Assembly (NCBI GenBank): GCA_001786955.1
Contig: MFUM01000004.1
Coordinates: forward strand, 4,457 to 68,456
DNA: 64,000 nucleotides
DNA from: Candidatus Nomurabacteria bacterium RIFCSPHIGHO2_12_FULL_42_19
GTDB taxonomy: Bacteria > Patescibacteriota > Minisyncoccia > Phycocordibacterales > UBA9973
Direction: 5' to 3'
Positions 31,382-33,041 of the stretch are shown here, one piece after another. The notes under the pieces are model-generated. The model saw only the letters and a list, made by a program, of their open reading frames with translations, was not told where the DNA came from and did no database searches. Position numbers and translations under genes: made by a program. Each line of letters begins with the position of its first letter. Position 1 is the first letter of the stretch.

Positions 31382-32110
31382 TTAATCCAGCCAATTTTTT
31401 ATTTTTAATGCGGCTTCAGCCGCTTTCTGTTCGGCTTCTTGTTTTGATTTGCCCTTGCCCTCGGCAATCAAGTCCGGTCCGAAATAAATACCCACGGTAA
31501 AATGCTTGTCGTGGTCCGGGCCCGACTGATGCAAAACCTTATAGGCGGGAGTAACCAACACGAATTCCTGCGCTTTTTCCTGCACCAGGGACTTTGCATC
31601 GCGCCAAAGTTTTTTATTTACTATTTCTTCTGTCTTGGGCAGAAGAGTTTCAGCCACGAATTTATCTGCCGCATCATATCCTCTATCCAGATACATAGCT
31701 CCGACAAATGCCTCATAAGTATTCGCCAAAATATATTGCCTGGCTTTGCCGTAATCTTTGGCTTCGCCTTTGGACAAAAGTAAATAGTCGTTCATTCCTA
31801 TTTTTAAAGCAATTTCAGAAATAATAACGGCATTCACAAGAGCGGAACGAAGCGCGGTCAATTCTCCTTCCGTATAGTGCGGATATTTTTTATAAAGAAA
31901 ATCGGTGACAATGAGCTCGAGCACGGCATCGCCTAAAAATTCCAAACGTTCATTGTGGGAAAGAGAAGCCGCCGGATTTTCGTTTATATAAGAACGGTGC
32001 GTAAAAGCCTGTTTAAGCAAATCCTTATTCTTAAAAATTACTTTTATTTTTTTCTCAAAATTTGAAAAATGTGTCATGTTATCTGTTTGTTTTTTGTGAA
32101 ATAATTTCAA
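31382..32110 (-). CDS. rnc: Ribonuclease III
   Basis: [13 protein letters not shown] catalytic signature and a C-terminal dsRBD are present. Confidence 0.9.
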
Positions 32111-33041
32111 CCGCCTTGCTAATTAACGGGATAATGTCGTTATAAATACGGAGTTCCGGGATTGCGGAAAGCTCAAACCATCTTGCCCCATCCAGTCCGC
32201 CGGATTTTTCCAAGGCAAGTTCTCTGTATTCGCTCTTGGCTAAAAAATAAACCACCTTTTTCAGGCTTTTTCCTTTTTCTGGATGCGTTGCCACATATTC
32301 GTTTTCCCCCAATTTTTCTTCCATTTTAATATCAAGCCCGATTTCTTCCTTTATTTCTCTGATTGTCGCTTCTTCTTCGTTTTCTCCCTTTTCAATACTG
32401 CCCTTGGAAATAGTCCAATAGCCGAAAACATCATGCACTAATGCAAAAAAGACTTTGTTATTCTTTTTCGCATAAACAAGCGCTCCGCCTTTTTTCTCAA
32501 CTGGCAATTTTGCAGTATCCGGCACTTCTTCGTGTTTTTTCTTTCTGCTGACTTGTTCTTTTCCGGGCTCGCCTATTTCTTTATAAACCGCGCCTAAGAC
32601 GCCGTTGACGAATTTACCGGAATTCTCTCCGCCGAAAGTTTTTGCCAGTTCTATCGCTTCATTGATAGCCACTTTCGGAGGCACTTCCTTCCTGTCGCCA
32701 AAAAGGAGCTCCGTTAGGCCGATTCTCAGAATATTCCTGTCAACAACAGAAATCTTATCTATCGGCCAATCAGGCGCGGCCTTTTCTATGATTTCGTCAA
32801 TCATTGCGCGCTTCTTTAACACTTTATCCATAAGCGAGAACACAAAAACATCATCCTCCAACCCTGGGGCAAATTCTTTTAAATTTCTTTTGAGAATATT
32901 ATTTATCTCTCCGGAAATATCGGAATTGCTGATTTTCTTATCATCGGACCCGCCTGCGCTCGACTGTGGCGAGGCGAGCAGGAAATCCCACTCAAAAAGC
33001 GTCTGAAGAACTATTGATCTGGAAAGGTGCCTATTTGCCAT
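32079..33041 (-). CDS. nusB: NusB-like N-terminal domain fused to a C-terminal Nudix hydrolase domain
   Basis: The N-terminal half has NusB-like helices (..[21 protein letters not shown]..). The C-terminal half carries the Nudix box [23 protein letters not shown]. Confidence 0.6.

Follow-up and report, generated by a model that had tools for sequence, protein, structure and literature searches.

A fused NusB-Nudix protein in Patescibacteria with a recurrently altered catalytic box

NusB is among the best-studied bacterial transcription factors and, to our knowledge, every description of it is of a single-domain adaptor, with the classical versions (E. coli, T. maritima, and Aquifex aeolicus; TIGR01951/PF01029) being about 140 aa in length. 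The NusB fold does have a precedent as one part of a larger protein: in RsmB/Fmu, the 16S rRNA m5C967 methyltransferase, a diverged NusB-like paralog is joined N-terminally to the methyltransferase and provides its RNA-targeting module. As for Nudix domains, the T. thermophilus Ap6A hydrolase Ndx1 and the asymmetric Ap4A hydrolases compared here (Aquifex aq_158, C. elegans, human NUDT2, and Chlamydia CT771) are free-standing enzymes, and the promoter repressors NrtR, NadQ, and AraR combine a Nudix domain with a C-terminal winged-helix DNA-binding domain. Ligand-bound structures are available for Ndx1 (1vc8) and the C. elegans Ap4A hydrolase (1ktg). A further Nudix enzyme, RppH, hydrolyzes Np4A and also serves as an RNA 5′-end decapping/pyrophosphohydrolase enzyme; Np4 caps are added by RNA polymerase as it initiates (PMC13010140).

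We examined a locus in a Candidatus Nomurabacteria genome, within a window comprising the whole 64-kb stretch of DNA that was analyzed, where a complete minus-strand ORF (32079..33041; ATG at 33041, TAA at 32081-32079) codes without interruption for a protein of 320 aa combining these two folds, with both Pfam domains scoring above their thresholds. Its NusB domain (PF01029) was recovered at residues 7-154 with an E-value of 6e-32 (111 bits against a cutoff of 23.1), the match spanning profile positions 3-133 of 133 (131/133), and the NCBIfam nusB equivalog model TIGR01951 scored 118 bits against a curated cutoff of 88.35. The NUDIX domain (PF00293) was recovered at residues 206-299 with an E-value of 4e-14 (53.1 bits against a gathering score of 21.1), and the motif GX5EX7REUXEEXGU is matched exactly at residues 214-236, with all the catalytic glutamates and the arginine present. 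Pfam detects only these two domains, and the protein ends with the C-terminal helix of the Nudix fold. The first-pass annotation had placed the ORF at the same coordinates, omitting the strand, and had read its N-terminal ~160 aa as NusB and its C-terminal ~150 aa as a Nudix domain with a textbook box; the profile searches agree on both counts, including for the N-terminal half, where a failure to look NusB-like in such a search had been named as the outcome that would overturn the reading.

The architecture can be divided into three segments, all on the minus strand. The all-helical NusB domain (residues 1-157; 32571..33041) displays an R4/R8 arginine motif, F16, D101-R102-N103, E111, a P121-K134 segment of 14 residues, and F144-x-N146-G147; it is interrupted by a disordered low-complexity insertion (residues 24-41; 32919..32972; pLDDT <50, column identity ~0.15), in a region whose length differs across the family (17-57 aa). 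Then comes a flexible charged linker of ~28 aa (residues 158-185; 32487..32570), followed by a Nudix domain with the minimal fold of the ApnA-hydrolase type (residues 186-320; 32082..32486), whose box (G214-L236; 32334..32402) is canonical in this genome.

Searches for relatives in a database of 5.8 billion proteins found both Pfam domains in 120/120 of the matches listed per search, in proteins of 285-337 aa. When 1.84 billion cluster representatives were searched exhaustively, 140 clusters came up at E ≤ 1e-30; the 57 cluster representatives of at least 270 aa are nearly all full-length fusions, with identity going down to ~32%. Similarly, when one genome was scanned for each species, at least 572 of these species-representative genomes encoded a relative, and the best 80 show a single frame that covers residues 1 to ~317. 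Among the matches listed, the hosts are Patescibacteria throughout (named as Paceibacterota, Nomurabacteria, Minisyncoccia, Parcubacteria, Terrybacteria, and one Moranbacteria); the "Saccharibacteria" titles borne by some of the records are probably blanket labels. The fusion had initially been described as unusual, with a suggestion to survey Patescibacteria genomes for it: this description holds across bacteria in general, but the survey, with its relatives in at least 572 species genomes, indicates that the fusion is the standard form of nusB in the patescibacterial clade. These proteins go in the databases only by the names "transcription antitermination factor NusB" or "N utilization substance protein B", even though both Pfam domains are already precomputed for them under the plain NusB name. 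We found no description of a NusB-Nudix fusion in the literature searched, which does not cover all journals; as far as that literature goes, the Nudix domain is an undescribed accessory domain on a genuine NusB, and one that a large clade carries as a rule.

The fusion is genuine, rather than a product of chance or assembly, because the same architecture recurs across assemblies and species. That a frameshift or mis-assembly had joined adjacent nusB and Nudix genes might be suspected from a stand-alone nusB found in one short unitig (L086); this reading is nevertheless vanishingly improbable, given that thousands of independent assemblies, and the genomes of at least 572 species, show the same architecture in a single frame, and we ruled it out on the strength of that recurrence. 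Moreover, apparent Nudix-only proteins are contig-end fragments: P0215, which resembled the Nudix half of a split gene, lies on a 1.8-kb contig, where its start is 38 nt from the contig end and the next gene is rnc. The protein from L086 (P0193) was likewise considered as part of a split gene; it is a genuine stand-alone nusB, but the next gene is directly rnc, with no separate Nudix gene between them.

The gene neighborhood of the fusion is strongly conserved. At this locus, the genes are arranged in the order rpmF (ribosomal protein L32; 33133..33357; Pfam Ribosomal_L32p), nusB-Nudix, rnc (RNase III, 231 aa; 31382..32077; Pfam Ribonuclease_3 and dsrm), and smc (29101..31374; Pfam SMC_N), all on the minus strand, with thrS divergent upstream. 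Scoring the evaluable cases among 80 species-level loci, we found rpmF directly upstream of the fusion in 76/76, rnc directly downstream in 76/77, and smc after rnc in 68/69; the rpmF, fusion, and rnc core is also kept in two divergent members of the family, one of them from a Terrybacteria genome. The probable start of rnc, an ATG at 32077, lies 1 nt past the stop codon of the fusion, and as this start gives an rnc product of the same length (231 aa) as in the relatives, the two genes are probably translationally coupled. The wider rpmF...rnc-smc neighborhood may simply have been inherited as a gene order, with no functional link behind it. A hairpin between rpmF and the fusion gene is strong at this locus; we rejected it as a conserved regulatory element, as it is missing in most relatives. 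The other genes in the window are of a housekeeping character (rpoB/rpoC, rpoD, dnaG, trmD, RNase R, gyrB, pheST, ligA, those for S2 and EF-Ts, and type IV pilus genes). Within the 64-kb window we found no rRNA operon, no S10 gene, and no second NusB or Nudix sequence; BoxA-like motifs are not enriched in it (5 matches against 9.4 expected by chance).

The stand-alone nusB of L086 (144 aa, with its own stop codon and 60% identity) clarifies the status of the N-terminal half of the fusion: because this plain nusB occupies the same slot between rpmF and rnc, the NusB half is the positional ortholog of ordinary nusB, i.e., the housekeeping copy. Either nusB acquired the Nudix domain in situ, or the L086 lineage alone dropped it. 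In the Aquifex NusB-NusE-BoxA structure, F122 stacks on BoxA-U8 and E81 hydrogen-bonds both BoxA-U8 and NusE-H15, and in E. coli NusB, Y18 is located at the NusE interface (PMC3177189). In our alignment, the equivalents of these residues in the fusion are, respectively, F144, which is 100% conserved; D101, which is Asp in 94% of the family, as in T. maritima; and F16, which is aromatic in 94% of the family. The all-helical fold of this half superposes on solved NusB structures, and its core has the highest mean column identity of the protein (0.60, as against 0.43 for the Nudix domain and 0.17 for the linker). Matches to the RsmB models are confined to residues 47-169, the NusB-like region, and reach 49 bits where the cutoff is 319; Pfam detected no methyltransferase domain in the fusion protein. 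Judging from these conserved positions, the N-terminal half is a working NusB, and we infer that it binds S10 and BoxA.

The Nudix half, in turn, is predicted to be a well-ordered domain (pLDDT about 85-95), with secondary structure and fold matches agreeing with an alpha/beta/alpha sandwich. The top Foldseek match is the Aquifex Ap4A hydrolase (TM 0.88), and sequence and profile searches recovered the C. elegans and human Ap4A hydrolases along with Dcp2; thus, the nearest structures and sequences are those of characterized, free-standing ApnA (Ap6A/Ap4A) hydrolases, which this half resembles in both sequence and predicted fold. None of the curated Nudix subfamily models scored above its cutoff for the fusion protein. 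The RppH models fall far below theirs (the best, NF001936, at 33.2 bits against 118; the remaining ones lower still, with cutoffs of at least 116). Going by these model scores, this half is not an ortholog of RppH, nor is it one of MutT, NudC, or others.

Between the two halves, residues 159-174 of the linker are predicted to be disordered (pLDDT <50), and the whole model has a pTM of 0.48. The linker is variable in sequence and spans 27 to 39 aa among close species, with a family-wide range of 11 to 45 aa; a role for it as a basic RNA-binding element was discarded on account of its net charge of only about 0 to +1. At 28 aa, such a linker would have a reach of roughly 80-100 Å. Given the disordered linker and the low pTM, no fixed interdomain packing is predicted, and in the model the Nudix half appears as a tethered domain rather than a docked regulatory one. 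This bears on the possibility that it is a small-molecule sensor comparable to that of NrtR, NadQ, or AraR, in which a metabolite or alarmone (Ap4A, ADP-ribose, or an NAD-related compound) would tune NusB in rRNA transcription to the metabolic state. The Nudix half does give fold matches to NrtR, AraR, and NadQ; however, a linker of 11-45 aa with no defined interdomain interface predicted is a poor basis for allosteric coupling, the nearest relatives by both sequence and structure are active ApnA hydrolases rather than NrtR, and many lineages, including the present one, retain a fully canonical box. Hence, we regard such a sensor as unlikely.

The catalytic box itself varies considerably across the family. 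In a close sample consisting of the query and the 120 closest relatives listed (at least 76% identity), E232 is replaced by Lys in 42/121 sequences and E229 by Ala in 12/121. In a broader set of 80 species-level sequences (58-85% identity, query included; the best of at least 572), E220, R228, E229, E232, and E233 are all kept in 41, to which one further canonical sequence (L061), mis-scored from a broken alignment row, should be added. A canonical box is present in 66/100 further relatives at 50-75% identity, with E229 lost in 30/100; at greater depth, E229 is kept in 14/58 representatives of 50%-identity clusters, and all five key residues in roughly 10/57 deep representatives. Overall, canonical catalytic residues have been lost in 34-50% of related species. 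Parsimony on a simple neighbor-joining tree of the NusB domain alone (157 residues) puts the minimum number of state changes at 17 for E229 and at 18 for the canonical state taken together, a rough count that may be inflated. The variation is concentrated at R228, E229, and E232, with recurring substitutions of RE by KA, KK, KR, RK, or RA and of EE by KE, the KAIKKE type being one example of a natural degenerate box; E233 is unchanged in 80/80 of the species sequences and invariant among relatives of at least 50% identity. By alignment with proteins of known structure, E229 corresponds to E58 of NUDT2 (PDB structures of the E58A mutant) and E233 to E50 of Ndx1 (PDB structure of the E50Q mutant). 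The residue that is lost again and again, E229, would thus be the very one that experimenters mutate to disable the nearest homolog.

The remainder of the domain has remained under constraint. Outside the box, the ratio of Nudix to NusB divergence is 1.79 in species with a canonical box vs 1.91 in those that have lost E229, and at matched NusB identity the Nudix divergence of the two groups is equal; accordingly, we could rule out a decay of the Nudix domain following catalytic loss. Invariant or nearly so in both groups are G186, D204, F206, W209, T210, K213, G214, E233, Y249, K261, L267, W288, and Y300, of which W209, K213, G214, E233, Y249, W288, and Y300 are 100% conserved in the 100-relative sample. 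In an alignment with Ap4A hydrolases, Y300 corresponds to Y121 of the C. elegans enzyme and F128 of NUDT2, and K213 to K36 and K42, respectively; both Y300 and K213 are at least 96% conserved in the family, and we take their equivalents in the Ap4A hydrolases to be the base-stacking aromatic and the phosphate-binding lysine. More generally, E233, K213, the WTxxKG motif, and the aromatics presumably correspond to the metal-, phosphate-, and base-binding positions of those enzymes.

This combination of lost catalytic residues and sustained constraint on the rest of the domain points to selection on the fold and its pocket rather than on canonical catalysis; from these sequence patterns, the conserved role of the Nudix half is more likely to be binding or tethering, with hydrolysis being optional. 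In the present genome it is probably hydrolytic, since all the catalytic residues are there. The functions first proposed for the fusion (a link between rRNA antitermination and nucleotide or alarmone turnover, or an activity akin to RNA decapping) presupposed hydrolysis as its purpose, an assumption undercut by the loss of catalytic residues in about half of the related species with undiminished constraint on the domain; among those proposals, the decapping-like one appears the most coherent for this protein.

The same patterns bear on two other explanations. One is that the fusion ensures nothing beyond co-expression in a streamlined genome, with the Nudix half being a general Ap4A/ApnA (or other nucleotide) hydrolase that acts on free nucleotides and is uncoupled from antitermination. 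This would accord with the free-standing nature of the Ap6A and Ap4A hydrolases to which it is structurally closest, with the canonical box in this genome, and with a flexible linker and lack of a predicted interface, as expected of two independent activities. Yet a housekeeping enzyme should retain its catalytic residues, whereas they have been lost in the above fraction of species with no relaxation of the domain; the fusion has stayed stable in at least 572 species and at identities as low as ~32%; and we found no Nudix gene close by that would compensate. As to the last point, we discarded compensation by a nearby stand-alone Nudix gene, with only one locus (L032) having such a gene within 4 kb; another stand-alone Nudix gene, in L002, shows a likeness to the domain of the fusion that is limited to the box motif. 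All told, a purely co-expressed hydrolase seems rather improbable to us. The other explanation is that the Nudix fold provides a structural protein-protein or protein-RNA contact in a transcription or ribosome-assembly complex and binds no nucleotide ligand, in the manner of mL46, a mitoribosomal protein with a Nudix fold. Here, it is the identity of the most conserved positions (E233, K213, WTxxKG, and the aromatics) that speaks to the contrary, as their invariance is unexpected on a pure docking surface, and we accordingly consider this very unlikely.

The reading that we prefer, though only tentatively and as one that may well prove wrong, is that of a composite protein: the housekeeping NusB of a patescibacterium of the Paceibacteria type, carrying a tethered ApnA-type Nudix domain, for which binding would be the core function and hydrolysis a lineage-specific one. 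By homology, its NusB half would pair with ribosomal protein S10, bind as the NusB-S10 complex to the 5′ leader of the nascent rRNA at a BoxA-like element, and act within the antitermination and ribosome-biogenesis complex. The Nudix half would accommodate in its pocket a nucleotide attached to a polyphosphate chain and, because it is tethered rather than docked, its target would be whatever NusB brings into its vicinity. The likeliest such target would be the 5′ terminus of the nascent transcript that NusB itself has bound, whether a triphosphate or an Np4-type cap, with Np4A-type dinucleotides beside RNA polymerase as an alternative. In this genome, the module would hydrolyze its ligand in an RppH-type deprotection or decapping reaction, alongside the coupled RNase III; family-wide, the pocket would have been kept and catalysis repeatedly dropped, with binding as the selected core and hydrolysis as a lineage-specific addition. 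This mechanism rests on the dual role of RppH, on Np4 capping, and on the precedent of the NusB fold in RsmB, and from these we infer the identity of the ligand, the action in cis, and the enzymatic activity.

Several considerations tell against the preferred composite model or weaken it. The Nudix half is not an RppH ortholog, and the conserved gene neighborhood may be a matter of inheritance. RNase III cleaves whether or not the 5′ end is monophosphorylated, and this independence counts against the model, as does the fact that no 5′-monophosphate-dependent RNase (J, E, or Y) was seen within the 64-kb window. In addition, the frequent loss of E229 would weaken any model in which hydrolysis matters. 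A more specific and doubtful version is that NusB serves as the carrier of a co-transcriptional reader and eraser of RNA 5′-end chemistry, which would couple the assembly of the rRNA transcription complex to 5′-end status and RNase III processing. Here, NusB-S10 would hold the BoxA leader while the tethered Nudix domain takes hold, on the same nascent pre-rRNA, of the 5′ triphosphate or the Np4/NAD-type cap; lineages with an intact box, this one included, would remove the 5′ group, and those with Lys or Ala substitutions would only hold the 5′ end as a pseudoenzyme reader.

In a clade of ultra-small bacteria spanning at least 572 species, a two-domain protein thus stands in place of NusB, hidden by a plain "NusB" annotation. 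Were the Nudix domain to act on the transcript held by NusB, it would physically connect the rRNA antitermination complex with RNA 5′-end deprotection or decapping for the first time. The intact and degenerate boxes would also form a natural series for studying the change from an enzyme to a binding module. Were it just a co-expressed Ap4A hydrolase, the outcome would be a modest correction of annotation. The architecture is a testable lead to an antitermination complex that may be coupled to RNA 5′-end or nucleotide chemistry; against that, fusions of domains are frequent in streamlined genomes, and the function is presumed from the comparisons made here.

Set beside the known systems, the fusion differs from classical NusB in the ~165 aa added at its C-terminus (the linker and the Nudix domain) and in the disordered insertion at residues 24-41. 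In contrast to RsmB/Fmu, with its diverged paralog and methyltransferase, the NusB of the fusion is a true ortholog and its partner is a Nudix domain. Unlike Ndx1 and the asymmetric Ap4A hydrolases, its Nudix domain is fused to NusB, and the equivalent of E58 of NUDT2 is often Lys, Ala, Arg, Ile, or Val across the fusion family. Likewise, whereas RppH, an RNA 5′ pyrophosphohydrolase and Np4-decapping Nudix enzyme, functions without a tether to a transcription factor, the domain of the fusion is tethered to one. Finally, in comparison to NrtR, NadQ, and AraR, the two domains come in the opposite order, the Nudix domain is paired with an elongation factor that binds RNA and S10 in place of a DNA-binding domain, and the nearest kin of the Nudix domain are ApnA hydrolases rather than ADP-ribose pyrophosphatases.

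The gene for the NusB-Nudix fusion is set between rpmF, which codes for ribosomal protein L32, and rnc, which codes for RNase III, and both of its junctions were analyzed. At the downstream junction, the mechanically called rnc ORF begins with a TTG at 32110 and so shares 32 nt with the fusion gene; an alternative ATG at 32077, 1 nt past the fusion stop codon, yields a 231-aa RNase III of the length seen in relatives. Because the ATG gives this shared length, the reading frames point to the fusion gene and rnc being probably translationally coupled rather than overlapping. On the upstream side, a very stable GC-rich hairpin (33076-33133, minus strand) begins at the rpmF stop codon (MFE of the 106-nt spacer -46 kcal/mol, z -4.5; as stable in 0 of 200 shuffles). 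After this hairpin comes TTGACA-16-CATTAT (33072-33045), which resembles a promoter more closely than any other site in the region. No second copy of the hairpin was found elsewhere within the window, and a comparably structured spacer was recovered in just 4 of 79 relatives. The hairpin may act locally to terminate or attenuate transcription, or it may provide RNase III with a site ahead of rnc.

In L086, the locus of a relative with 60% identity, known from a single 1-kb unitig, rpmF and rnc flank a stand-alone nusB coding for 144 aa (513-947), which indicates that the fusion and the plain nusB are positional orthologs. Several related loci (L002-L004, about 9890-10422; L032, about 8098) code for an additional stand-alone Nudix protein, whose gene is the next one after smc within the operon. 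As the Nudix box is its sole likeness to the fused domain, we assign it to a different subfamily; its presence does not track with whether the fusion has lost catalytic residues.

Other genes of the window were also recorded. A 634-aa protein (27164-29068, plus strand) has both a Peptidase_S11 domain (D-Ala-D-Ala carboxypeptidase) and a PGA_cap domain (capsule synthesis, CapA-like), and the same two-domain protein occupies the equivalent place in the related loci L001 and L002. An ORF for a predicted MazF/PemK-like toxin (16127-16540, minus strand) directly follows rpoC (16521-20129), overlapping its 3′ end by 20 nt, and a small Fic/DOC-domain protein (35514-35957, minus strand) is encoded between thrS and gyrB. 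The latter gene (36292-38391, 699 aa) lacks an intein, whereas gyrB of the related genome GCA_028718635.1 (L001, 1-1908) codes for 1125 aa and contains one (PF14890). ARAGORN called two tRNA-Ser genes, at 62475-62563 (minus strand) and 62801-62890 (plus strand): one has the putative anticodon ACT, which is unusual, and the other, a tRNA-Ser(GCT), is missing from the Rfam gathering-threshold scan listing.

In the NusB half of the fusion, helices 1 and 2 are separated by an insertion (residues 24-41; 32919-32972) that is disordered and of low complexity. Its length is highly variable across the fusion family, with the surrounding region spanning 17-57 aa, and classical NusB proteins, in contrast, are without it.
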